Shown: piece by piece, positions 3,221 to 63,700 of the stretch
How the letters are laid out: each line of letters opens with the position of its first letter
How positions within the stretch are numbered: the first letter of the stretch is position 1
Origin: Cyanidioschyzon merolae
Lineage: Eukaryota
Length of the DNA stretch: 64,000 nucleotides
Reading direction: 5' to 3' (one strand)
Assembly (NCBI GenBank): GCA_000091205.1
Contig: AP006498.2
Notes under the pieces: model-generated
What the model was told of the DNA's origin: nothing
The model's database searches: none
What the model saw: the letters and a program-made list of their open reading frames with translations, nothing else
Made by a program: the position numbers and the translations under genes

Positions 3221-3724
3221 CTATCCGCCAGTCTGCACCTGCTTCGAGTACTCTCTCACTAAATAGACCAGGACCGCTATGCATACAGGAACAAACAGTC
3301 GTTTCAAAAGCGTCCACGTGCTGGATCCACCAGAGAGCGGCTCAGCTCCGAACGCGCCCCCGGCAAAGAGTCGCTCTTTTCCCAGACCGTTGGCTCGAAC
3401 ACCATCGCCGTCACGCCTCTCGGCTGCTGCACTCGCTTGGACGGCTCGCTTTGCAGCGAGTTCCTCTGCAGTGGGCTCTCGTACGTCACCAATGTAAAAC
3501 TCTTTGAGCTGCTCCCGCGCAGACTTGGAGTGACCGACATCCTCGAACTCGCGCGTCGCGTCCCGACCTGCGGTCTCGAGGAGCACGTCTTCGCCTCCGG
3601 GGTGCTCGTTCAGAAACTTCTCAACGGCGTATACTTTACCATCGATGACTAGCCAGCATGAGTCCTTATCTGCGTGTTTAGCGACCTCGTCCAAAGTAAA
3701 CTGAGTCGTGCGACCCATCGCCAT
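3221..3724 (-). CDS. cytochrome b5, tail-anchored
   Basis: Minus ORF 3221-3823. The haem-binding motif HPGGEDVLLETAGRDATREFEDVGHS and a C-terminal hydrophobic anchor (LFVPVCIAVLVYLV) are present. The likely start is the internal Met of MAMGRTTQFTLDEVAKH at 3724. Confidence 0.75.
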   Translation of the reverse strand: MAMGRTTQFTLDEVAKHADKDSCWLVIDGKVYAVEKFLNEHPGGEDVLLETAGRDATREFEDVGHSKSAREQLKEFYIGDVREPTAEELAAKRAVQASAAAERRDGDGVRANGLGKERLFAGGAFGAEPLSGGSSTWTLLKRLFVPVCIAVLVYLVREYSKQVQTGG

Positions 3725-3849
3725 CACCAACGCCGTTCGAAAGTCGAACGACGCCAACGGTGTACAATAGTGGCGAGTGACCCGCCCTAGAGGAGACGTC
3801 GCCAGTTGATGTGCGGACGCCATCCAATCTTTCTCGACCGGCCACGTAC

Positions 3850-4385
3850 AACTGCTTCCAACTTTTTCTCATATAATTCCACGTTGGGAGGTTCTCCCAC
3901 AAAATTCTCTCTTGTCTACTTTGGAGGTCTATTCTCCAGCACCGCACATCTCCTTATATCGATAGCTGCGTTAAGGTCTCGGTTCACAAACTCGATACGT
4001 TTCTTGCCATCATTGGTTGTACTTACTAATGCAAGTAGCCGTCGAACTTTTGCCCTCCTTTCCATTTGCTCGTCTGTCAGCGGTCCGTACTTTTTTATAT
4101 CCTCAGGGCTCCACTGACACTTTTACATTTCCACTCTCTGAGGTGTGCATCCGAGTTCATGGTGTGTACACGATGTTCGGAACTCATCTACAGGTATCGT
4201 GACGAAACGCCTTGCGCACTCCTTTTACGTTCTTGTCGATGGAGCTGGTGTAGTCCCTTTTTGGGTCTTCCATCGGCCTGCTCCGTACGCTACTACGAGC
4301 CTCTGACTTTCATCCTCCTTCAGGGCACTCAGCTGATTGAAGAAGTTTGCGAACGCCCGCTGCCTCCCACCGTATAGATGCATAC
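3850..4385 (-). mobile_element. F-family 3-prime-region fragment, left arm of an inverted pair
   Basis: Plus ORFs 3806-4117 and 4017-4202 match the minus-strand reading of 30145-30564 (GLFSxTAHxxIxIxALxSRxxNSIRFLP, HGVYTMFGTHL). Confidence 0.5.
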
Positions 4386-4489
4386 GCTGACGAGCCCACC
4401 GGGGCTTTGTATACCCTTTCTACAGCTCCTCGTTATGAGCAGCGCGAGTATTCATGAACTCCAGAAAAGCCTGAAAGTCCGCTCAACGG

Positions 4490-4910
4490 CTCGTCACGTT
4501 ACCGATAGATGAGTAACGAACGACTTTCGTCCACCATGAGTTGGGACGTACACTTCAGAAGGTAGAGATGGAAAAAGCCAGCGGGGCGCTCCGGAGATGA
4601 AAGAGTACGGAGAGCTGCCAGAGCAGGAAATTGCAGTGAGGGCACGAGGCCGTGGACTCCTTGCATTCATAAGTTCCACCAGCGGCGGAGCATGCAAGGA
4701 GTTCGTGAACCGAGACTTTAACGCAGCTATTAATATCAGAAGATGTGCAGTGCCGGAGACGAGACCCGAAGAGCTGACGCGATCTAATTTTGTGACACAG
4801 CCTCTCAGGCTCCAAGTGTACAGAGAGAAGCTGAAACCGATAGCCGAGGGCAGGTCGAAAAAGACTGGGAGATGTCTGCGCGATAGTAGATACACACAAA
4901 TACCGCCCAT
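4490..4910 (+). mobile_element. F-family 3-prime fragment retaining the RuvC-III motif
   Basis: ORF 4597-4938 reads GLLAFISSTSGGACKEFVNRDFNAAINIRRCAVPETRPEELTRSNFVTQPLRLQVYREKLKPIAEGRSKKTGRC, with D-x-NAA-x-NI. Confidence 0.6.
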
Positions 4911-6524: not shown

Positions 6525-6603
6525 GCCCGACCTACCCGAGCGGTCTTCAACAGCCTCCAGTTTGCAGTGTATTCCGAAAGACTTGCGAAAAAGGAGTTTC
6601 GTG

Positions 6604-6685
6604 ACGGCGACGCGATTCGAACGCGCGTGAGCTGTCGCTCATTGGAACCTTACTCCAACGCCTTGGACCACTCGGCCACGCCGTC
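6604..6685 (-). tRNA. tRNA-Leu(AAG)-like, type II with long variable arm
   Basis: The reverse complement GACGGCGTGGCCGAGTGGTCCAAGGCGTTGGAGTAAGGTTCCAATGAGCGACAGCTCACGCGCGTTCGAATCGCGTCGCCGTC folds by eye. There is a perfect 7-bp acceptor stem, a GCC/GGC D-stem with a GAGTGG loop, an anticodon stem TTGGA/TCCAA with loop GTAAGGT (anticodon AAG), a GAGC/GCTC variable arm, and a GCGCG/CGCGT T-stem with TTCGAAT loop. Position 32 (G) and the discriminator (C) are atypical. Confidence 0.55.
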
Positions 6686-11159: not shown

Positions 11160-11676
11160 CTTTTTTACGGTTTATAGTGAATGCATTCGAAGTGCGTTCA
11201 TTCGAAGTGTAAAAAATCCATAGGAAATATATGGACATGGAGGTCGAGGATCCTGGTGGACCCCCATCGCCGTGCTCGACAAAGGAAACAAAAAAAGTCC
11301 TCTTCTCGCTGGCCATGGATCGAAGAAGAGCGCATGACGGAGAAGAACAGGGGGAATAGGCGAGAAAAGGTGTTTGCCGGACGGTACGTTTACAAAACTC
11401 TAGTGGTACAGGGGGCACGAGTTCCAGCTATCCTTGCGTTGATGAGTTCCACCATCGGCGGCAATAGAAGTATGGAGCTCGTGAACCGCGACTTCAAAGC
11501 TGCCATCAATATCAGACGATACGCGTTGCTAAAGACGAGACCCGCGGATCTGACGCGATCCAACTTTGCGGGACAGCCTCGCAGGGCCTAACTTTACAAG
11601 CAGACGCTAACGTCGATAGCATGAGGCCCGTCTAAAAAGGCCGGGTGGCGTCCGCAGGTGGATATTCGTTTACCGA
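11160..11676 (+). mobile_element. F-family internally deleted short copy
   Basis: Conserved 5-prime leader (gcattcgaagtgcgttcattc) and ATGGAGGTCGAGGATCCTGGTGGACCC start. ORF 11181-11591 ends ...ELVNRDFKAAINIRRYALLKTRPADLTRSNFAGQPRRA. The conserved 3-prime terminus ggtggatattcgtttacc is present. Confidence 0.6.
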
Positions 11677-20439: not shown

Positions 20440-21480
20440 GCCCCCATGGCCCGAACGGAGATCGTGCAGCTCAGTCGTCCATCGTTGCTATAGCCCTTGA
20501 ACTCGATTTCGTTCCGTCCCTGCCGCGTGTCATCGAATGCTTGTTCGCAGTGTATTGCAGGAGATCGAAATCGCTAAGCAATATGCCGCATAGATCTCGG
20601 ACGAATTGAATGTAGTATATATTCTTTCACTGAAGAGTGCAAGGAGGACTGCATTCTTCTTTCAGGTCAGTCGTACCACAGTACTCCGATAACAGAGGAA
20701 CACTGAAACAAAGAACTACATGCGCTCCGCGCCTTACATCGATATTATCAATGTGTGTTTGCAGTCCGTCGAAGAAACGCGACCCGTTGGTCACATTTCG
20801 GAAAGCAAAAGCGACGATGGTAGTCACCACGGGCGTCTGTGTGGCTCAACAGCTTGCTCGTGTGGTCCTGAATGCATTGGGATGCAATCCAGTAAAAGAG
20901 ACCTAGTTCACGCACGGCGTTCTTCCACACAAATCGCAACGAAAAAAAGTTCCTGGAACGTCGCGATCAGTATGAAGTACCCGGCGGTCGGTTTGTTTGT
21001 TCAGTCGGTGACACTTGCTTCGGACGAGAAGGTCGGATCGTGTATGAGTATTCGTGGGGCAGGGCGCCCATTTTATGTACAATCGAACTCGAATAGAACG
21101 AGGAAATCATAATCTGTTCTAGCTTTAGTGTATTCAAGTGGTGGCTCCAATTTCGCTCATAGAGAGGGCTCATATTAGAGCGCTTACGTTGTCGAATCAT
21201 TGAAGACTTTTCCCTGACGCCCGGCGACGCCCTTCAATTGGAAGACATGGTACTTCGCAAGTCCCGTTGCGTTCGAGCTTTTGTCGAATCGATCGAGGAG
21301 TAGAGCTGCTTTTCATTTCTCCGTACGCTCCGTGATTTAACCCCATCGAGGGAGTGTTTCGTATTGTGATACGTAATGACAGCTCCACTGGGTGAATCGC
21401 TGAAGCGTGCAGCACACGGTGACACACCAGGCCACATGTCGTCGTCCTTATGCAAGTCCTTCTCTCTCTAGGAAGGTACT
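20440..21480 (+). pseudogene. D-family: Tc1/mariner-superfamily transposase remnant (degenerate)
   Basis: About 1.0 kb homologous to 61500-62520. At 21200-21360 a frame reads LEDMVLRKSRCVRAFVESIEE*SCFSFLRTLRDLTPSREC. This is the degenerate counterpart of the DNxxxH...PxYxPxLxPxxE catalytic block visible in copy 2. Confidence 0.5.
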
Positions 21481-21985
21481 CGCCTAACGGCATAAACAAG
21501 TATGTTCTTTTGAAGAAACATGAAATTCAAGGGAAAGTTACGGACATGGATGTCGAGAATCCTGGAGGCCCGATGTCTCCGGATCCGAAAGAAAATATTC
21601 GCCTCCCCGACCATGGAGCGAAGAAGAGCAATTCATGACGACGACGACGATGATGACGACGATGCGATATAGGCGAGAAAAGTTGTTTGCTCGACGGTAC
21701 GTTTGCGAAACTGTAGTGGCACCGAGAGCACGAGTTCGAGGCATCTTCGCAAAGCTAAGTTCCACTATTTGCAGTAAATGAAAGGATTTCGTTTACCGAG
21801 ACCTCAACGCCGCGATCATTATCAGACAAATGTGCAGTGCGAAAGACGATACCCGAGGAACTGACGCGATCTAACTTCGCAGGGCACTCTCTCAGGCTCA
21901 AAGTGTGTCTAGATAAACTGAAACCGATAGCACGTGGCTGGTCAAAAAAGGCTGCGAGGCTTCTCAGGGTGGATATTCATTTACT
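21480..21985 (+). mobile_element. F-family short copy fused downstream of the D relic
   Basis: ATGGATGTCGAGAATCCTGGAGGCCC start and a (GAC/GAT)n tract. ORF 21837-22175 reads EELTRSNFAGHSLRLKVCLDKLKPIARGWSKKAARLLR, and the terminus is ggtggatattcatttac. Confidence 0.6.
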
Positions 21986-22754
21986 CTATGGTCCTGGGAT
22001 ATTTTCTGTTTCACGGATCACATGTATACAGCGACTAGTTCAGATGCCGATCGGCGTCCTGTCCAACGCTAACTACACCAGTTCCAGGATAAAATGTGAC
22101 ATGGAACTATTCGCTCTGTTTCTGTCTTGCGATTTCAACCGAACTATTTTAGATGTCCAGGCTCTGCGTTCGTAGTCTGGCAATAAGCGCTTACGGATTC
22201 ATACGCAGTTTTTGGGATTTTCGGTCGACCATCCGCAGTGGCTCCATCGATGTCGTGGCGCTGGAATTCGTTACGCCACAGGATTCAAGATCATTCGCTA
22301 CGCCCTCGAACAGGGATTTGTAAAATAACCTGTATTATAATCCAATGGATAAGCAGAAGCCTTGACTCTTCTCTCCCAGTTGCGTACAGCATGCTCAAAT
22401 CAAAAGACTTTAGCATTTTTGGATCTTTCAGTGCCAATGGAACTCGTGAGTGCAGCAGTTCGCCCCACTGGATAAACGAGGAAAAGAGTGCAACGTTGTC
22501 GTCGACTATGGGCTTGTTCACAAACTCATATCAAATGCATACGGACATTTTCACGTCATAGATACGATTGCGTTCAAAAGAAATATCGTTTTCCCTTAAT
22601 GTCCATCGACGAGACGGGATTCGACAGCAGCATGAACGCGTTCAGAAAAAATCTGCCCCGAGAGCATCCGCCGCTTTTTATGTATGGGAAAGGACCAGGA
22701 ACCGGGACTTGAGTCGTCAAAGCGATTACATTCAGTGGATAGTTCGTCAGCGCT

Positions 22755-27389: not shown

Positions 27390-28140
27390 TACACTGATTT
27401 TTTCGATGACAAAACGTTTACATTGACCTTGCATCCCGGATTGCAGGATAGATAATGGTAATCAAAGAAGTGTCCAACATGATGCACCTTACCTCCAAGT
27501 TCCATGACTTATTCTCGGATGTATTGGTCGTTTCGTATGTTCTATCGTGCGCCAGGTACCTGCTTTGAGCACCCGCCTTGGTACCTAAACTGCTGTTACG
27601 GATGCTGCACGTAAACAGAGCGGCTTTGCCATACCACTGAGCGCTTCGGCTGGAGGAATGCTTCACCTAACATGGAGTCGGGATCCATTATAATCCTGGG
27701 TGCCGGTAAGCTGTGCAGACAGACGTACTGTCTGCGGCAGCGCGAAGCGATGTACAAGGAGTCCACTGCGACCGGGGCGATCCCCAGACGCAGCGTACCC
27801 GCTCCTAGTCTTGGAATAAACTGCGTTTTGGACGAGCTGCTCAGGTCCATTCACAGCACTGGGCGCTGGAAAGAGCATGAATGACTGGTCTAGCAGACAC
27901 GTCCGGCTCGCGAGACCCTCCTCCTATAGGGTAAACTTTCGACAGTGTGGAAAGCGTGTCCGCCTTTTAACGTTTATCGTAGATGGGGAAAGTAATCATT
28001 TTATTGTCGCTACTTAGTGGCTTCTTTCTGTTCTTCGTTCTGAATAGAGCGCTCGATGCGCGAACCTCCATACCTGGCAGGAACTGAACATGTCGCGTAT
28101 CTCGCAGATGGAGGGAAACGCGATCCTGACCGCTCCTTGC
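27390..28140 (-). mobile_element. B-family copy, inverted relative to the copy at 410-1100
   Basis: The TIR at 28100-28140 (ggagggaaacgcgatcctgacc) is the inverse of the 412-435 TIR. 27850-28000 matches 550-830 and 63050-63290. Minus ORF 27418-27666 (GAQSRYLAHDRTYETTNTSENKSWNLEVRCIMLD) matches plus ORF 63301-63618. Confidence 0.6.
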
Positions 28141-28239
28141 CCTATTTCTCTAAAGGGCGAGTTGTATTCTCGTTAACTTCATAGCCAAGTATAGTTTTCA
28201 ATTCGATTGCTTTTCAACCCTCAAGTAAAAATATTCGAT

Positions 28240-30656
28240 TGACTTTTCGCAGTATATAACAGAAGCGTTCAAAGAGCGTTCTTTTTCAAAAAAAATAAAA
28301 ATGAAAAGTTATGAGAAAGCAAGTCGACGATCCTGGAGGCCCAGTGTCGCTGGGTGCCAGACAAAAAAACGAAAAACTGTGCCTAGTCCAGAGGAACAGG
28401 AAAAGGCAAAGAAGCAAGGGCAGGAAGACCGACGTCAGTGGCTGCAAGAAAGACGACAGTACGACGAGACGGTGGGGAAAGCCTGTTTTCTTAAACATAT
28501 CAAGGATCCGCATAGAGAAAAATCGCGAGAGGTCATTAGGAACCGTGTCGATTCGTACTCCAGGAGGAGTATAAAGTCGTCCTCAGGACTAATGCATCTG
28601 GTGAAGGGGATGTACGAAGACGTGATGGACATGGAAACAGTCGAGGTTCCGGAAGAATTCTTCGACAAGACCTATATTCGTCACCTGATGCTTGGTAGAG
28701 CGGAAGCGCAGAGGGAAAAAGAGCGGATACACGTCCTCACGAAAACCATCCTTTTTACAGCTTCGAGGGTGCTCGAAACAAGGGTGACCGGGATATTCAC
28801 GACAATGGGGCGATGAAGTAGATCACGAACCTGAAGAACCATTTGACAGTGAACCTCGAACGTTTCATGAAACGCACCGTGTTTGCACTCTACTCGGGCC
28901 TATCTCGCAATGGAAAATGGGCGATTATCAATGGCATCACGAAAGATCGCAAGCGTGAAGATGAAGTCGAATTCGTCGACAAGAAGGCATCAAACGAGAG
29001 CACGAATGAAGCTTCTGTAATCCGTGCGGCTATAGAAGAGCATCGTGCAGTCCTGGAGCTGGCGAATCCAACAGACAAGATATCAGAGTTGAAAGAAGCT
29101 AAGGAAAGATACTATCGCCTCGTCCTGCGCTATTTCGTGTTTCTGGACCAAGAACTCGAACGCAAGGCAGAGGTGAAGCAGCGTGAGGAAAGCAATGAAG
29201 AGTGGGAGAGACGGAAGGCTTTCCTACTGGGGAAGCGCCTCAACGTGGTTCCAATGTGCAACATCAAGTCACATTTTGTGACTATCCACTCCAGAATCCT
29301 TCACGGCATCATGGAGGAGATTAGTCCGGAGTTCGATGTTAGCAGGGAGGAATTCTCCGGTGAAAACCGGGAGACGTACTGGAAGAATATCTTCGATTTC
29401 AAACATCTCAAAGTGAGCAAGCAAAAGGTATTCAATGGGATGATCGAAACCGATGGGGTAGCCTTGTGTGTACACTATCGGCGGTTGAAAAGAGATCGTC
29501 CAGTTCCACCCTCGGCTTCGCCCGTGACGAAGGATGAAGAAAAGAAGGAGGCGGATCCTGCGACGCAGGAGGTATAGGATAAAGACCTTGTCGTTGACGT
29601 GACGAAGGATGAAGAAAGGGAGGAGGCGGATCCTGCGACACAGGAGGTGGAGGATAACGACCTTGTCGTTGACGCGGTGAAGCATGAAGATGAGAAGGAG
29701 GCGGATCCTGTGATGCAGGAGGTAGATGGGAACGACTTTGTCGTTCGTGCTGACCCCGGAAACACAAATATCGTAATCATCGCAGTATCCAAGCGTGCGG
29801 AAGACGGTACCGACGGTAATTTTCGTCAGAGACATGCGTCTTTTGAGGTTCTCGAAAATGATATATTATCGAGAATCCGGCACAATGAATGCAAGGAAGA
29901 AAATTGAGACATGGAATGCAGGAATGAAGGATCACCTGGAAACTTTGAGCGAGGTGACTAGCCGAGAGGCGGACTTTCAAACTTTTCTGAAATTCATGGA
30001 AGTTCGCGTTGCTCATTGGGATGCGCTGTGGAATGAGTATGCAAAGCCCCGGTGGGCTCGTCTGCGTATGAATTTGTATTTTGGGAAGCAGCGTGCATTC
30101 GCGAACTTTTTCAATGAGCTGAGCACCTTCAAAGAAGATGAAAGTCAGAGGCTCGTAGTGGCGTACGGAGCAGGGCGCTGCGCGCCCAAAAAAGTATATA
30201 CACCAGCTCCAACGACAAGAACGTACAAGGAGAGCGCAAAGCGTTTCTTTACGATACCAATAAGATGAGTTCCGAACATCGTATACACACCATGAACTGG
30301 GGTGTACATTTCAAAGGGTCGAGATGGAAAAGTGCCAGCGGAGCCCTGAGAATATAAAAAAGTACGGAGCGCTGACAGATGAGCAAATGGAAAGGAGAGC
30401 GGAAGTTCGGGACTACTTGCATTCGTAAGTACAATCAATGGCAAGAAACGTATGGAATTTTTGATCCGGGACTTTAACGCCACAATCAATATAACAACAT
30501 GTGCGGTGATGGAGAATAGACCACCAGAGCGAACACGAGAGAACTTTGTTGGACAACCTTTCAAAATGAAACTATATGAGAAAAAGTTGAAACCAGTAGT
30601 AGGTGGCCGGTCGAGAAAGACTCGATGGTGTTTGAACGTCAGTTGGAGACTTCTTG
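28240..30656 (+). pseudogene. F-family long copy: disrupted TnpB/Fanzor-like RuvC-nuclease gene (about 790 codons over five frame-shifted ORF pieces)
   Basis: ORF pieces are 28301-28816, 28843-29577, 29599-29907, 29795-30268 and 30452-30661. [17 protein letters not shown] is a RuvC-I-like GxDPG block. LVVAYGAGRCAPKK...PAPTTRTYKE is a post-RuvC-II-like region. The C-terminus GLLAFVSTINGKKRMEFLIRDFNATINITTCAV carries D-x-NA(A/T)-x-NI, the RuvC-III signature. There are in-frame stops at 29578 and about 30400. Confidence 0.6.
29524..29748 (+). repeat. 75-bp tandem repeat x3 inside the F long copy
   Basis: Units at 29524-29598, 29599-29673 and 29674-29748 encode ...[22 protein letters not shown] / [25 protein letters not shown] / [29 protein letters not shown]. 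The last unit ends in the RuvC-I-like block. Confidence 0.7.
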
Positions 30657-30838
30657 ACTAGGGCGGGTTTCTCGCCACTACTGTACACCGCTGGCGTCGT
30701 TCGACTTTCGAACGGCGTTTTGCGATGGTTTGATCGTTGCAACGCTCCAGGAGCAAACAAGGCTTGGAAACGTGCACGCTTTTCATGGAAAGAGCGCAGC
30801 GCTGCTTGCAGAGAGAGCCTTTGATGCGGTAGAGGTGC

Positions 30839-33016
30839 TTGGTGCTCGTCGCTGAGAGTCCGCGAAGCAACTGCACCAAAACTGGCGACGGCAAGGTTTT
30901 ATCTATGTGCATGGTAGTCGCGAAAGGCGTAATAGCACGTTTCAGCGGTAGCGTGCACAACCTGGGCCGCTGGAGAAGCTGGCTTGTCTCGCGGACAGCT
31001 CTGTTTCGTCCGTTTTCACTTCGAGGCGAACGGGCGCTGCTAGCAGATCCCCGATGCCAAAACGACAACGTTGCAGCTCCTCTTCTACCTGTTCAACTGA
31101 GCAGCTCTCATCCAAGGGGCTTGCTTTCGGCAAACTTGGTGTATCGGACAGCGCGATTTATTTGCACGAAACAGTGTTTGCCAGCGACGGCAGCAGAACC
31201 GCCTGTACAGCAGCAGCACCAGCAGCAGCAAGACGGCAACGTTACCGATTCTGCGTGTCATAGGAAGTGCCTCAGTTTTCTGCAGGCCTGGAGCATTCCC
31301 GAGTTCCCGGTAGTGTCCGGGACGCAGCTCGGGGCCTTCCATGGATGGCCGTTGCTCCTGAGAGCCCTCACACATGCGTCTGCTCTGCCGCCACGTCTGT
31401 GTCCCCGCGAGTCCGGTGTGCTCACTGATGCACAGCGCTGGGAGCGCTACCAGCTCCATAATGCTGCCTTAGAGTTTGTCGGGGACCGCGTCCTCAACCT
31501 TTGTGTCGTGGACTGGCTCGTAAGGACACAGCCGTGGAAAACTCAAGGTGCAGACACTGCGCTGTATCGAGGCTCGAATATCAAAGAACGGTTGACGTTC
31601 TATGTACAGCAATATGTGTATAATGCGCATCTGACGGATGTTGCATATCGAATAGGACTTGATCGTATCGTCCGTCGAAGACTCCCTGCTGAAAAGGAGC
31701 ACCCCGGACGCGGCACCGAGCTGGTGCTCGCCAACGCTTTCGAAGCCCTTGTTTGCGCGATATTTCTGGAACACGGTTTTCTCCAAGCACAGAAATTTGT
31801 ACGCCAAACATTATTTGAGGGGCCGGGTTCCTCGCTGAAACAGCCCATGGGAGACTCGTGGCATGCAGACACACGATTTGCTGCGACGGACACAGCTCGG
31901 GTACGACAGGAGGCTGCTGCTCTGGACAGGATGCGGCAGCCAGTTCTGCGACCCCCGCATAATATACCGCTTTCTTCTCATCCCAAGGAGGCTTTGGAAA
32001 AAGAGCTGTTGCTCTGGGGTCTGTGTATCGGAGGTAATCGCTCTGCCGGAGGTGAAGACCTTCGAACTAGAGCGCAGCAGCAAAAGAGGTCGGGAGTATG
32101 TCTCTCCTACTGTCTAGAACATGAGGAAAGGCGACTGAGCCATCATTCCCTATATATGGTGCGTCTAGAGCTGTCAGGAGTGGTGGTCGCTCGCGGACGA
32201 GGTCGCTCGATTCGCAGTGCAGAGAACGCAGCAGCGGCCGCTTTCCTGAAGGCACTCGGTCTGGACTGTGCATCGTTTCGAACGCCATATGCCTCTGGGG
32301 AAGCGTTATCCAGCCGAGAGATTTGGAAACAGTTCCGCGACCTCAACGTGCCGCTTTGCATCCCGGACAACTATAAGCCCGCGTCTCCTTTCGACGAGGA
32401 TGCCGACTGGGCGACAATCTTGCTCTGGAATCGAGAACGCTTCGGGAGCGTCTCGCGACAAGAACAGAAAACACGCGCCAAGGCCGAAGAACGAGAGGAA
32501 CGCTCTCCTGGTGATGCTGTTTTTTGGCATCAAGCTCTGGGATTCGATGATTGGGCAAACGCCCGGCAAGTGCTGCCGTCTCTGTTGGCGCTGGTGCTTC
32601 CGAACGAGGGCCCCGAACCCGAGGCTGCCCGAACGGCGCTCGCTGCTGCGGAGCTGGTGGAACTCAAGTATTTGGGACACTGCGGTTTGAAGCTTTTCGC
32701 AGCAAGCTCCAGTCTTCGGATCTATGGTCCGGGTGCATGGTCGACGGGAGCCCTTCACGATGACTACGTGCGAGCGATTGCGTCAACAGCGGTAACGGGG
32801 CAGGCTGCGGAGCTGCTGAGACGTCTGCAGCGCGCCGGGGCCTGGCGGACGAGGCAGCGCCTCTCAGCAGCTGCGCAACGCGAACTGTTGCTAGCGTTCT
32901 TAGGAATTGCACAGGTGCTGTTTGGTTACGAAAAAGGGCCGGATTTACTTCTTAGAACTCTGGATGAGGAGAAACGCGCGTCTACACCTGTCTCTTTCGA
33001 CAGACCCCATCTTTAG
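30839..33016 (+). CDS. RNase III domain protein with C-terminal dsRBD-like segment and polyQ tract
   Basis: HNAALEFVGDRVLNLCVVDWL matches the RNase III signature (E-x-LEFLGD), and ELVLANAFEALVCAIFLEHG matches the second conserved block. SGVVVARGRGRSIRSAENAAAAAFLKALG is dsRBD-like. (CAG)n at 31200-31232 encodes QQQHQQQQ. Confidence 0.7.
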   Translation: MVLVAESPRSNCTKTGDGKVLSMCMVVAKGVIARFSGSVHNLGRWRSWLVSRTALFRPFSLRGERALLADPRCQNDNVAAPLLPVQLSSSHPRGLLSANLVYRTARFICTKQCLPATAAEPPVQQQHQQQQDGNVTDSACHRKCLSFLQAWSIPEFPVVSGTQLGAFHGWPLLLRALTHASALPPRLCPRESGVLTDAQRWERYQLHNAALEFVGDRVLNLCVVDWLVRTQPWKTQGADTALYRGSNIKERLTFYVQQYVYNAHLTDVAYRIGLDRIVRRRLPAEKEHPGRGTELVLANAFEALVCAIFLEHGFLQAQKFVRQTLFEGPGSSLKQPMGDSWHADTRFAATDTARVRQEAAALDRMRQPVLRPPHNIPLSSHPKEALEKELLLWGLCIGGNRSAGGEDLRTRAQQQKRSGVCLSYCLEHEERRLSHHSLYMVRLELSGVVVARGRGRSIRSAENAAAAAFLKALGLDCASFRTPYASGEALSSREIWKQFRDLNVPLCIPDNYKPASPFDEDADWATILLWNRERFGSVSRQEQKTRAKAEEREERSPGDAVFWHQALGFDDWANARQVLPSLLALVLPNEGPEPEAARTALAAAELVELKYLGHCGLKLFAASSSLRIYGPGAWSTGALHDDYVRAIASTAVTGQAAELLRRLQRAGAWRTRQRLSAAAQRELLLAFLGIAQVLFGYEKGPDLLLRTLDEEKRASTPVSFDRPHL

Positions 33017-43437: not shown

Positions 43438-44780
43438 TCTTTCCGCAGTCATCAACACCAGCCTTGGCGGATTCTCTGTGACTGCTTCCATTAGATTTCT
43501 CGTAGCTACGACTTTAAATACGCCGGTCGATCACCTCCCTCAAGATCTGTCGTCAGAGCTCGACGGATATTGATGCCAGCATTAAAGTCCCGATTTCGCC
43601 GTCTCAGGCTGGTGCCAACGCATGCCATGCCCAGGCAAAAGTTGCGATCTTCGCTTTGTCTGCCATCTCCATTTTCTCTCCAGAGCAGCATCGATACGCC
43701 CTTCGCAGCAGCGACTCTTGGTAATGGTCACGCTTTTCCTGTTTGTCCAATACGCTTCCTCCTCTGAGCGCCGCCCTGTGGCGCGTGAACGCTTGCCCCA
43801 ACGCTCACAGCACATGCACGTGCTGGGTACAGAACCATCCCGCAAGTGCCGTCCTCCATCCACGCGCCCGGTACCGTACCCTGTGATCGACAGCTTATTC
43901 CGGGTAAGTCTGCGGCAGGTGCTCTGCCCGCTGAACACGAAAGCGCACGCCACTCTATTCGACAAAGGATTTGTGGATCGCGATGTTGTTCACGATGAAA
44001 CAAGTTCCGGACGGGAAACCCGCAGCAGCCAGAAGACTGAGGAGCTTCGAACAATCCACGCTACACTGGTGCAACGCGGTGACGCACTCTGCGCTGGGGG
44101 CGAGCGCTGACGTCAGTGCGAGTCCAAGACACTTCTCCGTGCAAGCAGAAGCGCTGGAGCCTCCGAGAGCCTCCGAGAGCCTCCGAAAGCCTCCGAGAGC
44201 CTCCGAAAGCCTCCGAGAGCATACCCCCAAGAGAGATATCGTGCTGTTGTCGAACCCTATTTCGTGGATGGCCACACAGAGTAGAGAATAACTCCTTCGG
44301 ACGGAATAGATCGTTCGGCGTTCGCAGTCCAGTCCGGAATCGGCACAAGCTCGCGAAGGAGTCCTCAAGGGAAGGCGTCGAGTTTTTTGGTCGCCAGTCC
44401 ATCAGAGCAGATTCCTACGCGCTCGGGTAGCCTCGAAACCAGAGAACTCTAAAAATTGAAGAATGCGTCATTTGAGCATATTACTCGTAAGGAAGGAGTA
44501 TGAGTGGCGTCTTCTGCGTATGAATTGGATGATGGTATCGGTTATTTTACGAACCCTTTTACGGGGACGTCGCGAATGACCGTGACTCTGGGGATGAAAC
44601 GCAGTCCAGCGGGAACGAGTCGAAGGGGTCATTCCGGAAAGACCACCGATGATCCTGGAGTTATATGAAAATCCCAAACCGATTGCTGCACTTTGCATGC
44701 CGAGGACGTGCAGCTAAAAGAATTTCGGGAGAATTGCAAGGCAGGAAGAGAGCGAAGAGTTCAGTGTTTCATTTGAATCT
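43438..44780. repeat. 1.3-kb direct repeat, copy A (composite of F-like RuvC-III fragment, C-family relic and minisatellite)
   Basis: Near-identical to 51274-52575, with only a handful of substitutions plus extra minisatellite units. Identical ORFs appear in both copies: 43506-43691 = 51341-51526, 43622-44110 = 51457-51945, 43582-43965 = 51417-51800. Confidence 0.85.
44157..44220 (+). repeat. 10-bp minisatellite (GCCTCCGAGA/GCCTCCGAAA), about 6 units
   Basis: gagcctccgagagcctccgagagcctccgaaagcctccgagagcctccgaaagcctccgagagc. The paralogous position 51995-52018 has only 2 units. Confidence 0.8.
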
Positions 44781-44868
44781 GGCTCGGCTGTTGTGCACTC
44801 GTCCAGAGGAGGCACCGAAATGCCTCGGAGAACGCTCGCACTGCACTCATCTTAAGGGACTCGTGGCA

Positions 44869-51273: not shown

Positions 51274-52575
51274 CTTTCCGCAGTCATCAACACCAGCCTT
51301 GGCGGATTCTCTGTGACTGCTTCCATTAGATTTCTCGTAGCTACGACTTTAAATACGCCGGTCGATCACCTCCCTCAAGATCTGTCGTCAGAGCTCGACG
51401 GATATTGATGCCAGCATTAAAGTCCCGATTTCGCCGTCTCAGGCTGGTGCCAACGCATGCCATGCCCAGGCAAAAGTTGCGATCTTCGCTTTGTCTGCCA
51501 TCTCCATTTTCTCTCCAGAGCAGCATCGATACGCCCTTCGCAGCAGCGACTCTTGGTAATGGTCACGCTTTTCCTGTTTGTCCAATACGCTTCCTCCTCT
51601 GAGCGCCGCCCTGTGGCGCGTGAACGCTTGCCCCAACGCTCACAGCACATGCACGTGCTGGGTACAGAACCATCCCGCAAGTGCCGTCCTCCATCCACGC
51701 GCCCGGTACCGTACCCTGTGATCGACAGCTTATTCCGGGTAAGTCTGCGGCAGGTGCTCTGCCCGCTGAACACGAAAGCGCACGCCACTCTATTCGACAA
51801 AGGATTTGTGGATCGCGATGTTGTTCACGATGAAACAAGTTCCGGACGGGAAACCCGCAGCAGCCAGAAGACTGAGGAGCTTCGAACAATCCACGCTACA
51901 CTGGTGCAACGCGGTGACGCACTCTGCGCTGGGGGCGAGCGCTGACGTCAGTGCGAGTCCAAAACACTTCTCCGTGCAAGCAGAAGCGCTGGAGCCTCCG
52001 AGAGCCTCCGAGAGCATACCCCCAAGAGAGATATCGTGCTGTTGTCGAACCCTATTTCGTGGATGGCCACACAGAGTAGAGAATAACTCCTTCGGACGGA
52101 ATAGATCGTTCGGCGTTCGCAGTCCAGTCCGGAATCGGCACAAGCTCGCGAAGGAGTCCTCAAGGGAAGGCGTCGAGTTTTTTGGTCGCCAGTCCATCAG
52201 AGCAGATTCCTGCGCGCTCGGGTAGCCTCGAAACCAGAGAACTCTAAAAATTGAAGAATGCGTCATTTGAGCATATTACTCGTAAGGAAGGAGTATGAGT
52301 GGCGTCTTCTGCGTATGAATTGGATGATGGTATCGGTTATTTTACGAACCCTTTTACGGGGACGTCGCGAATGACCGTGACTCCGGGGATGAAACGCAGT
52401 CCAGCGGGAACGAGTCGAAGGGGTCATTCCGGAAAGACCACCGATGATCCTGGAGTTATATGAAAATCCCAAACCGATTGCTGCACTTTGCATGCCGAGG
52501 ACGTGCAGCTAAAAGAATTTCGGGAGAATTGCAAGGCAGGAAGAGAGCGAAGAGTTCAGTGTTTCGTTTCAGTCT
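51274..52575. repeat. 1.3-kb direct repeat, copy B
   Basis: See copy A (43438-44780). The differences include gcaggattcctacgcgc versus gcagattcctgcgcgc and fewer minisatellite units. Confidence 0.85.
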
Positions 52576-52804
52576 GAAGGTTGTAAAGTGCGATTGGTCA
52601 ACGATACTTGCACTGCCCATCAAGAGAGTTTTACGGATCATCGTTTCCCCACCGCTGCCAAAAATTTGCAACTAAGCATTGCGAGCTGGATCATGTTCTA
52701 CATCGTGTAAAATCGATCCGCACTTGTCCAACAGAGGCATTCGTCCGTGCCCCTGAACGAAAGCCTCGCCTGGAATTCTCAACGTGAAGGTTCTCCCGTC
52801 CGTG

Positions 52805-61499: not shown

Positions 61500-62520
61500 C
61501 GCTTGGCATAGCTGCACTTCCTGTCGTTCAACGCAATGCTGTTCCGTACCCGCTGCGTATCATTGAATGCTTATTCGATGTTTATAGCAAGAGATCGAGA
61601 TCGTTATGCAATGCACCCTACATACCGCAGACGGGTTGCCTGTATGGTACACTCTGTACTGAGGAGTGTACCGGGAACTGCATGCCTCCTTCAGGTCAGT
61701 CATACCGCATTACTTTGATGGCAGAGGAACGCTGAAAGAAATAACTAGATCTGCTCCGCGCCGAAAACTGGTATTGCCAAAGTATGTTTGCGGTCAATGG
61801 TACAAAAACAACCCGTTGATCTCTTGAGGGAAAGCAAAAGCTGTGATAGGAGCTGCTAGGACTGTCTCTGTTACTCAGTAGCTTGTTCGCTTGATCCTGA
61901 AAACACTGGGACACAGTCGCAAGAAAAGGCAATCTAATTCAGCACCATCTTGCACGGAAATCGCAACGAAAGCGTTCCTAGAACGTTGCGATCGGTATGA
62001 AGCTGAGCAACGCCCGTGTATTTCAGTCGATGTGGCTTGCTTCGGATGAAACGGTCGGAGCGTACATAAGTATTTGCTGGGCGGGAGCCCGGCGTATGTA
62101 CGATCCAACACGAAGAGAATGACGACATTATCATCTGTTCTAGGTACAGTGTATGCATATGGCGGCCTCAGTTTCGCTTATAAAGAAGGCTCATACATCA
62201 GGACCCTTTTCGTCGAATTATTCAAGATTTTCCTCCTCACGTCTGGCGGCGTCATTTTGTTGGACAACGTGGCGTTTCACCATTCCCCTTGCGTTCGAGC
62301 TTTTGCAGATGCGGTTGGGGTAGAACTGCTTTTCACTCCTTCGTACGCTCCTTGGTTAATCCCAGTCCAGGAGTGTTTTCTATCATGAAACGTAATGAGC
62401 GCTCCACTGGGCGTACTGATGAAGCGTTCAGCACACGGTGACACCAGGGCACATTTCGTCTTTCCTCCGCAAGTCCCTGTCTCTCCGGGAGGGTTTTCCC
62501 CTAAGGGCATAAAAAGGTGC
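61500..62520 (+). pseudogene. D-family copy 2: Tc1/mariner-superfamily transposase C-terminal remnant
   Basis: ORF 62074-62388 reads ...GGVILLDNVAFHHSPCVRAFADAVGVELLFTPSYAPWLIPVQECF. DNxxxH is followed 36 residues later by the E of PxxE, the Tc1/mariner DD(34-37)E third catalytic block (compare fqqDNapcHts...lpPYSPDLNPIE). Upstream frames are degraded. Confidence 0.55.
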
Positions 62521-62996
62521 GTTTATTTGAAGGAATAAAAAAATCCGAGGGAAAATTAAGGACATGAAAGTCGGGGATCCTGGCGAGCCGTCATCGCCAG
62601 CTGCCGGAAAACAACGAAAAACTCCTCCGCCCGCCCACCATCGAGCGAAGAAGGACAAGTGACAAAGAAGAAAACAGAAGTTTAGCTAGAAATGGTGTTT
62701 CCTCCAACAGAACAATGAATAGGCTGTTGTAGCATATACAGCATGAGTTCTGGGAGTCCTTCCAAAGGTGAATTCTATCAGAGGCAATAAACGCATGGAG
62801 TACGTGAAGCGAGACTTTACGCTGCTACCAACATCATACGCTATGTGGTGCTGTATACGAGACTACAGGAGCTTAGGCGATATGAGTTTGTAAGGCAGCC
62901 TCTCAGGGACTTGGTGCAAAGAGAAAAACTGAAGCCAATGGCAGGAGGGCGGCCAAAAAGGCTGCGAGGCGTCTTCGGGTGGGTGTCAATTTGCCA
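62520..62996 (+). mobile_element. F-family short copy fused downstream of D copy 2
   Basis: GGACATGAAAGTCGGGGATCCTGGCGAGCC start. A 3-prime part encoding ...RDFTLLPTSYAMWCC...LRDLVQREKLKPMAGGRPKRLRG (degenerate) and the terminus gggtgggtgtcaatttgcc. Minus ORF 62428-62658 mirrors the other copies (DDGSPGSPT). Confidence 0.55.
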
Positions 62997-62999
62997 AGG

Positions 63000-63700
63000 A
63001 TAGCAAGAACAGAAACTAAACACTTACTAGCTGCCCGATAACGATTTCTTCCCGCCTCTACAGTAAGCGTTGAAAGGGAGGGAAGGGTTCCGTATATTCG
63101 AAAGTTTACCTTCTAGGCGGAAGATCCCCCGACCCGGACGAGTCTGCCGGGCTTACGCTCCGTTTGAATCTGCAGTGACGAAAGCTGTGATGAAGTTTGA
63201 GCAGCTCGTCCGAAATGCAAGTTATCCTGGGACTCGGAGCTGATATGCTGCCTCTGGATGTCGCCCTGGTCGCAGTGGACTCCTAGTATATCGCTTCGCG
63301 TTGCCGCAGGCAGTATGTCTGTCTGTACAGTTTCCAGGCTCCCAGAATGATAATGAATCCCAACCTGTGTCGGATGAACCACGCCTCGGTCCGACGCCTC
63401 AGCAGTATGGCAAAGCCGCTCTATCTCCGTTCTGCATCGGCATCAGCGGTATGGGCGCTTTCGCTGGAGCCCAGAGCAGGTACTCGGCACGCGACAGAAT
63501 GTATGAAGCGACCAGTGTGTCCAAGAAGAAGTATCGGTTATGGAACTTGGAGTTAAGGTGCCGCGTGATGGACGCTTTCCCGAAAGCCAAGACCCATCCG
63601 GCAATCTGGAATCCATAGTCTATGTAAATATTCTGTCAAAGAAAAAAGATCGACGCGATCGCTGCCTCTGTTGGATGCTGCCGCCCTCGATGTTTCCCAT
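63000..63700 (+). mobile_element. B-family copy, 5-prime-truncated, abutting the F copy
   Basis: 63050-63290 aligns with 550-830, and 63540-63690 aligns with 940-1080. ORF 63301-63618 matches the minus ORF 27418-27666. The right TIR is degenerate. Confidence 0.5.

Follow-up and report, generated by a model that had tools for sequence, protein, structure and literature searches.

To our knowledge, every Fanzor tested so far has a guide RNA. The source of these omega-RNAs within the element is already published: they map to the 3' end of the ORF and the right end of the element (Saito et al. 2023, PMC10432273; Jiang et al. 2023). In SpuFz1 the scaffold is 75 nt long and lies wholly 3' of the stop codon, the GtFz1 omega-RNA overlaps 17 aa of the ORF (both Saito et al. 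2023, PMC10432273), and in the mimivirus Fanzor (ApmFz) conservation reaches into the coding region (Saito et al. 2023, PMC10432273; Jiang et al. 2023). Nuclear localization signals occur in ~60% of Fanzors, and those tested are N-terminal (Jiang et al. 2023). One Fanzor1 family, CMe-1A, has been described for Cyanidioschyzon merolae (Bao & Jurka 2013, PMC3627910); the passages of that survey devoted to it give ~150 copies with ~80% identity to the consensus, a length of ~3 kb, no reported terminal inverted repeats (TIRs) or target site duplications (TSDs), and a class listed as unknown. A literature search for RNA studies of C. merolae Fanzors found none.

Here we analyse a 64,000-nt stretch of nuclear DNA from C. 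merolae 10D (the window) containing at least seven copies of a dispersed repeat, F. An earlier note on this DNA had drawn attention to a short inverted repeat near the 3' end of each copy, had placed F in a TnpB/Fanzor context, and had proposed the hairpin at 21900-21985 as an omega-RNA-like scaffold. Its premise, that Fanzor omega-RNAs originate at the 3' end of the ORF and the right end of the element, agrees with the published work cited above.

The repeat family and the transposase gene upstream

The copies of F are strongly diverged (65-85% identity). Their 3' parts lie at ~1480-1766, 4640-4880, 11415-11673, 21725-21985, 30395-30727 and 62740-62982 on the plus strand and, inverted, at 3722-3960. 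The longest copy (28300-30661, +; stop codon TAG at 30659-30661) encodes a frameshifted protein in which the motif RDFNATINI can be read, and an inverted partial copy (3722-4497, −; stop codon at 3787-3789) has the same 3' end. A pseudo-protein stitched from the window gave no matches when searched by itself against Pfam and PDB, and family-level profiles were needed. A database search returned 121 homologues of F, most of them in hot-spring metagenomes, where at least 460 F stretches were confirmed. A profile of 21 homologues matched the Fanzor1 PDB chains 9CF0 (3.8e-20), 8GKH (SpuFz1, 3.8e-16) and 9CER (GtFz1, 3.7e-6); distant homologues carry PF07282, the Cas12f1-like TNB domain; and the family consensus contains the RuvC-like D…E…D motifs ADPGNTN, DEFRTSY and NRDFNAAINI. 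RuvC-like motifs, homology to characterised members and occurrence as a multi-copy transposable element of a eukaryote are the features by which Fanzor1 members of the TnpB superfamily are recognised, and F has all of them. Since the organism, the divergence of the copies and the ~3 kb length match the sole published C. merolae Fanzor1 family, F is identified by sequence comparison as CMe-1A, a Fanzor1 of the TnpB superfamily. The TnpB/Fanzor context supposed in the earlier note is borne out by these motifs, the domain and structure matches and the match to CMe-1A.

The agreement with CMe-1A extends to particulars given in the passages of Bao & Jurka (2013, PMC3627910) on this family: many diverged copies in the same organism, a full length of ~3 kb (27398-30727 here), no obvious TIRs, and a 5' part of ~635 bp common to another repeat, found here at 27398-28035 and in inverted copies. 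Copies of this ~640-bp segment are located at 27398-28035 (+), 63005-63647 (−) and 1-1037 (−), the two inverted ones beside short Fanzor copies; it probably corresponds to the TE-N2_CMe-like segment that Bao & Jurka described. The ORF of the longest copy also contains an expansion of a 75-nt tandem repeat (29523-29747, +; three units, encoding an acidic repeat), whose unit number varies among the family members compared (P0035, P0038 and P0041). Elsewhere in the window, three long ORFs are exact matches to proteins of C. merolae 10D: a protease IV (BAM81792), a rod-linker (BAM81797) and a cytochrome b5-like protein. A 1.3-kb direct duplication (43439-44781 and 51274-52576; 96.6% identity) has no relation to F, whose copies are much older.

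The copy that carries the flagged hairpin, at about 21546-22065 (+), is internally deleted and decayed by frameshifts and stops, with an overall identity to the family consensus of 67% in gapped alignment. An N-terminal remnant (MDVENPGGPMSPDPKEN; 21546-21700, +) is joined by the deletion to the last ~85 codons, such that ~50 codons of the Fanzor N-terminus (MDVENPGGP…) are followed by …RVRGIFAKLSS…YRDLNAAIII…KLKPIARGWSKKAARLLRVD…. The RuvC-III remnant Y-R-D-L-N-A-A-I-I-I (21794-21823, +; family consensus N-R-D-F-N-A-A-I-N-I) is the sole RuvC motif kept. The C-terminal coding remnant, ending in PEELTRSNFAGHSLRLKVCLDKLKPIARGWSKKAARLLRVDIHLLY (21837-21989, +), aligns to the family tail PPELTRENFIGQPLKVELYEKKLEAVVGGRSKKAGRRLHVSWRRFV, which in the family is followed by the stop codon; here the ancestral TAG has become TAT at 21987-21989, so that the mechanical ORF extends to 22175. 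The copies at 1257-1766, 11214-11673 and 62547-62982 are collinear with this one through the deletion region, while main-family copies match the short-copy profile from position ~195 only. These alignments are consistent with a deletion junction shared among the copies and with a non-autonomous derivative that multiplied. A further short-derivative copy is present in a metagenome locus (L026, 3098-3501, −). The short Fanzor derivatives of the window resemble the ‘ghost’ loci of S. punctatus, which lack the ORF.

A frameshifted pseudogene of a Tc1/mariner-type DDE_3 transposase (20511-21500, +) directly precedes the Fanzor remnant in the same orientation. A paralogous pseudogene is found at 61541-62540 (+), and its segment 62074-62440 matches Pfam DDE_3 (PF13358) with E = 4.8e-13. 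This configuration has a counterpart in P0147, an intact distant relative of the Fanzor: a DDE_3 transposase gene precedes the Fanzor gene by 34 nt in the same orientation, and its product is 38% identical to the window remnant (E = 4e-16). The intact DDE_3 gene in the distant relative's locus spans 1176-1967 (L082-L087). The common gene order and the homology of the genes in P0147 and in the window argue that the DDE_3-Fanzor pair is probably ancestral, which in turn indicates a Tc1/mariner affiliation for CMe-1A. Sequence comparison thus suggests that the CMe-1A lineage, so far unclassified, descends from a Mariner/Tc1-Fanzor composite. The same pairing of transposase and Fanzor1 is found in the Mariner/Tc1 elements PUl-1 and PGv-1 described by Bao & Jurka (2013, PMC3627910), and the position of DDE_3 5' of the Fanzor on the same strand likewise recalls the Fanzor1c-transposase associations of Jiang et al. 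(2023). Unlike elements of the PUl-1/PGv-1 type, the decayed window copies show no recognisable TIRs or TA duplications: a search of both composite copies, which are ~70% identical, yielded no convincing end-to-end inverted repeat or TA duplication. The 5' boundary of the element, compared in three decayed copies, is poorly defined. The 21546-22065 copy also differs from CMe-1A as described, being internally deleted and having a DDE_3 pseudogene on its 5' side, neither of which is mentioned in the passages of PMC3627910 that deal with this family.

The inverted repeat within the C-terminal codons

The flagged hairpin occupies 21933-21956 (+), where CGTGGCT (21934-21940) and GGCTGCG (21950-21956) enclose a 10-nt loop, GGTCAAAAAA; its minimum-free-energy stem, CGUGGCU/GGCUGCG, includes three G.U pairs. 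Equivalents are located at 62949-62965, 11626-11646, 30607-30624, 4853-4866 and 1685-1704 on the plus strand and at 3824-3841 on the minus strand. The best-paired of them, GCGGCC-AAAAA-GGCTGC at 62949-62965 (+) in the short copy at 62547-62982, lacks 1 nt that is present in the other copies. A short inverted repeat at the A-rich run is indeed present in every copy, as the earlier note had said; the parts of that description that did not hold are conservation as a structure and location near the 3' terminus. The hairpin starts ~18 codons before the stop in the better-preserved copies and sits inside the conserved 3' block: the stop codon follows ~35 nt 3' of it, and the family continues for about 95-105 nt 3' of it, across the stop and the non-coding tail.

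Overlap with the C-terminal codons, also claimed earlier, is confirmed. The inverted repeat spans the tail codons Gly-Arg-Ser-Lys-Lys-Ala/Thr-Gly; the AAAAAG “loop” is Lys-Lys, and the arms are Gly-Arg-Ser (GGC CGG TCN) and Ala/Thr-Gly (GCT/ACG GGG). In the present copy 21933-21956 encodes …R-G-W-S-K-K-A-A…, and the hairpin codons lie within the intact C-terminal tails of the family (…GGRSKKAGRRLHVSWRRFV, then stop) and of intact relatives (…KKLEAVVGGRSKKAGRRLHVSWRRFV, then stop). The stem in the family register is CCGGUC/GACKGG, for which the corresponding arms here are CTGGTC (21938-21943) and GGCTGC (21950-21955). The earlier note had read the differing stems of the copies as compensatory changes, but the stems it quoted pair in different alignment registers; the apparent compensation therefore consists mostly of alternative pairings within G/C-rich Gly/Arg/Ala codons.

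To place the hairpin in a larger sample, 80 metagenome loci were fetched, of which 47 are distinct at <97% identity, and the 3' ends of the distinct metagenome copies were aligned with two well-preserved window copies (alignment A4). The P0147 sequences are a single locus recovered from several samples, 100% identical and uninformative for covariation. Local folds of the window hairpins gave z = −0.1 to −2.0, with −1.99 for 62949-62965 and −1.31 for the 21900s hairpin (38-nt segment); the 86-nt segment 21900-21985 gave z = −0.85, and 39 of 200 shuffles fold as well. Averaged over the 47 copies, the folding z was −0.6. Folding energies at the hairpin locus were −6.2 kcal/mol on the sense strand and −4.5 kcal/mol on the antisense strand, a bias that is weak evidence because the copies share ancestry. 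When 1.33 kb of the ORF was scanned for 6-bp stems at least 80% paired across the copies, ~30 distinct sites were found, about one per 45 nt; the flagged hairpin, at 0.81, stands at the bottom of this list, in which CTGGAG-7-CTCCAG reaches 0.95.

These background values, together with the z-scores, speak for the account that a wobble-containing stem of 4-7 bp arose by pure chance in G/C-rich sequence and was noticed for its A-run. The sequence is conserved by descent and coding rather than random, and chance in this sense is very unlikely, although the account is largely the same as one in which the hairpin is a by-product of coding.

With the hairpin and three other candidate helices held in register, 78.9% of alignment cells in the 47 copies are paired, against 78.7% in shuffled alignments, and 179 of 500 shuffles reach the observed value; the hairpin helix alone is 81% paired. 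Its middle pair is a non-canonical G·G in 27 of the 47 copies: the synonymous third position at column 177 is G in most copies, giving the G.G mismatch, although ACC or ACT would pair. RNAalifold applied to the 47 copies did not predict the hairpin, drawing a 3-bp GGC/GCC stem only. With the seven window copies alone it drew a 6-bp in-register stem, in which a single copy (62949-62965) shows a C-G to G-C swap. A search of 28000-31000 with the Rfam 15 covariance models returned no match at E ≤ 1. The only gathering-level Rfam match in the window is a tRNA gene at 6602-6685 (−).

The earlier note had tied its scaffold claim to covariation in an alignment of more copies. None is found across the 47, in a test whose power is limited because the variation among copies is mostly neutral decay after insertion; on its own terms, the claim fails. 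The selection on pairing that it had invoked likewise finds no footing in paired fractions equal to those of shuffles to within 0.2 percentage points, in stems that are out of register and in a stability that does not exceed background.

Could the hairpin nevertheless be an omega-RNA scaffold stem, in an RNA running from the ORF 3' end, with at least ~18 codons overlapped, to the right end, the flank serving as guide? F is a Fanzor1, and some of the omega-RNAs described for Fanzor and TnpB extend into the 3' end of the ORF; a hairpin ~18 codons before the stop makes such an overlap possible by comparison with the 17 codons of GtFz1. The last ~85 codons are kept in the short non-autonomous copies, and besides the small sense-strand bias the consensus 3' region of 273 nt folds at −97.9 kcal/mol against −80.4 kcal/mol for shuffled sequences (z = −3.4). 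In that same minimum-free-energy fold, however, both arms of the flagged hairpin pair with other partners, and conservation at paired and unpaired third codon positions (0.857 and 0.787) does not differ significantly (p = 0.19). When the roughly 70-95 nt that separate the hairpin from the similarity boundary are added to the copy-dependent registers, the frequent middle mismatch, the RNAalifold result, the ordinary stability and the comparable hairpins found throughout the ORF, a scaffold role for this stem appears unlikely.

We consider it probable instead that the flagged hairpin arose as a by-product of coding, in a CMe-1A Fanzor1 copy that is internally deleted and dead. The G/C-rich codons that flank the Lys codons of the basic tail can pair in several alternative registers, and the copies would resemble each other at the hairpin through shared ancestry and because selection once acted on the protein in the master elements, not on pairing. 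The basic tail itself may have served the protein in nuclear import or nucleic-acid binding, and in the 21546-22065 copy the hairpin would have no present function. As posed, the flagged hairpin matters little: both the family and the general origin of Fanzor guide RNAs are published, and nothing independent speaks for the hairpin.

The non-coding tail and its terminal hairpin

The conserved sequence of the main family does not end with the ORF. After the TAG stop follows a conserved non-coding tail of ~60-65 nt (columns 219-301 of A4). Its elements are, in order, a GGCG-loop-CGCC mini-stem, a near-invariant box (CGCCACTACTGTA) and a sense-strand terminal hairpin 10-19 bp long. Beyond the terminal hairpin, similarity between copies falls from 0.75-0.95 to 0.3-0.4. 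In the longest copy the tail spans 30662-30727 (+), with the GGCG/CGCC mini-stem, the box CGCCACTACTGTA at 30673-30685 and the terminal hairpin CGTCGTTCGA-CTT-TCGAACGGCG at 30695-30717, just after which family similarity ends. In the inverted copy the tail is at 3722-3786 (−), with the box at 3763-3775 and the terminal hairpin at 3731-3753. These two tails are the only recognisable ones in the window; a family tail profile run across it detected no solitary ‘ghost’ tails. In the short copies, that at 21546-22065 included, the match to the family profile is restricted to the ~30-40 nt stretch that encodes the hairpin (~30 nt in the 21546-22065 copy), and the tails are decayed or divergent. The probable decayed tail of that copy, undetected by the profile, would lie at 21990-22065 (+) with uncertain boundaries; it contains a possible remnant of the box, CACATGTATACAG, and, at ~22043-22060, the short palindrome GATGCCGATCGGCGTC.

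BAM81787, the annotated 167-aa cytochrome b5-like protein, has its start codon (3722-3724, −) no more than a few bases away from the inverted Fanzor copy's 3' end, and a longer ORF of 200 aa (3221-3823) starts inside the transposon tail. Several metagenome gene calls (P0087 and P0090 among them) likewise read from a Fanzor tail into downstream genes.

The terminal hairpin behaves differently from the flagged one in the comparisons among copies. It reaches 19 bp, as in CACCGTTGGCGTCGTTCGA-CTT-TCGAACGGCGTTGATGGTG. For the 45 nt 3' of the box the folding energy is −17.0 kcal/mol on the sense strand; the antisense strand gives −11.7 and flanking sequence −9.4, with p-values that are inflated by shared ancestry. 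Grouped by sequence, these 45-nt segments form ten clusters, eight of which have a hairpin in the same position although the sequences differ, for example AACGTTTTTC/GAAAGACGTT and CCGGCGAGCACGCGC/GCGCGTGCTCGCCGG. At least one clean compensatory change, from G.U to C-G, was observed in it (locus L062 compared with L067). For comparison of 3' flanks across lineages distant relatives were also fetched; P0143, at a contig end, has no 3' flank. The terminal hairpin is a real structural feature of the family 3' end and persists through sequence turnover.

These properties weigh against a reading of the flagged hairpin as a DNA-level cis element, namely a binding hairpin for a transposase or HUH-type enzyme near the element end that would be needed for mobilisation. 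The ends of Rep/HUH transposons are marked by hairpins, the flagged hairpin is kept in short derivatives, and the passages on the family in Bao & Jurka (2013) report no TIRs or TSDs. The flagged hairpin is not subterminal, however, and a much stronger hairpin holds the real 3' end; as DNA its stem requires G.T pairs, and it shows neither a stability excess nor covariation. The associated transposase is, moreover, of the DDE_3 type, and Tc1/mariner DDE_3 enzymes bind double-stranded inverted repeats. Such a role for the flagged hairpin is extremely improbable. A Replitron or other HUH element was considered for the locus as well and set aside, as none has been reported in red algae and there is no Rep gene at the locus.

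The non-coding tail, with its box and terminal hairpin, is on the sequence evidence a better candidate for an omega-RNA or a transposon end than the flagged hairpin. Any CMe-1A omega-RNA would be centred on the ~60-65 nt tail 3' of the stop, and the guide would begin where similarity between copies ends.

Whether such an RNA might reach back into the ORF was approached through the codons. Third codon positions show an excess variability of +0.10 to +0.18 along the RuvC region and of ~+0.09 at the hairpin codons, which shows that selection acted on the protein encoded by the ORF. Between codons −58 and −35 the excess drops to ~0, with similar dips elsewhere in the ORF. This missing excess, together with the z of −3.4 for the consensus 3' region, means that some RNA-level constraint overlapping the ORF end may exist. 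On a tentative model, in our view a rather doubtful one, the last ~230-300 nt of CMe-1A would form one long omega-RNA that starts ~55 codons upstream of the stop, takes in the region of the flagged hairpin and reaches as far as the terminal hairpin, so that its 5' part overlaps the ORF; the AVVGG codons (GCAGUAGUAGGUGGC) would pair long-range with the box GCCGCCACUACUGU, and deleted copies such as 21546-22065 would be ‘ghost’ carriers. Were the model true, an RNA-guided nuclease system linked to Tc1/mariner would occur naturally in C. merolae, and the question of the class of CMe-1A would be answered.

The complementarity in question extends over 14 bp between the A-V-V-G-G codons (GCAGTAGTAGGTGGC; A4 columns 147-161) and the conserved box (GCCGCCACTACTGT; columns 230-243). 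In the window it joins 30593-30607 with 30671-30684, and the highly variable third position at column 155 is a bulged base. The long-range consensus fold that includes this 14-bp AVVGG-box helix was tried and rejected as a conserved structure: 85.6% of its cells are paired, against 85.4% in shuffled alignments, and no covariation was found.

Comparison with described guide RNAs and element ends

The likeness to GtFz1 and to ISDra2 TnpB, in which the omega-RNA can overlap C-terminal codons, concerns the position of the flagged hairpin ~18 codons before the stop; overlap in those systems was shown by RNA-seq and structure, and for the flagged hairpin it is suggested by position. A second likeness concerns the terminal hairpin and not the flagged one: G/C-rich, strand-biased and resistant to turnover, it recalls the subterminal 3' hairpins of Helitron and IS200/IS605 elements, unlike which CMe-1A has no accompanying Rep/HUH gene. 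The corrected map of the 3' end, with the stop codon followed by a near-invariant box and a strand-biased terminal hairpin, shows where a C. merolae Fanzor guide RNA should be sought. SpuFz1 and its ‘ghost’ loci (Saito et al. 2023, PMC10432273) offer the counterpart, a Fanzor1 present in many copies, among them ORF-less or ORF-deleted derivatives in which the 3' region is retained. Unlike the SpuFz1 loci, the present copies yielded no 30-nt inverted repeats, and the flagged hairpin lies upstream of the stop, outside the region that resembles the SpuFz1 scaffold; it is the conserved CMe-1A tail of ~60-65 nt that is comparable to that scaffold region.
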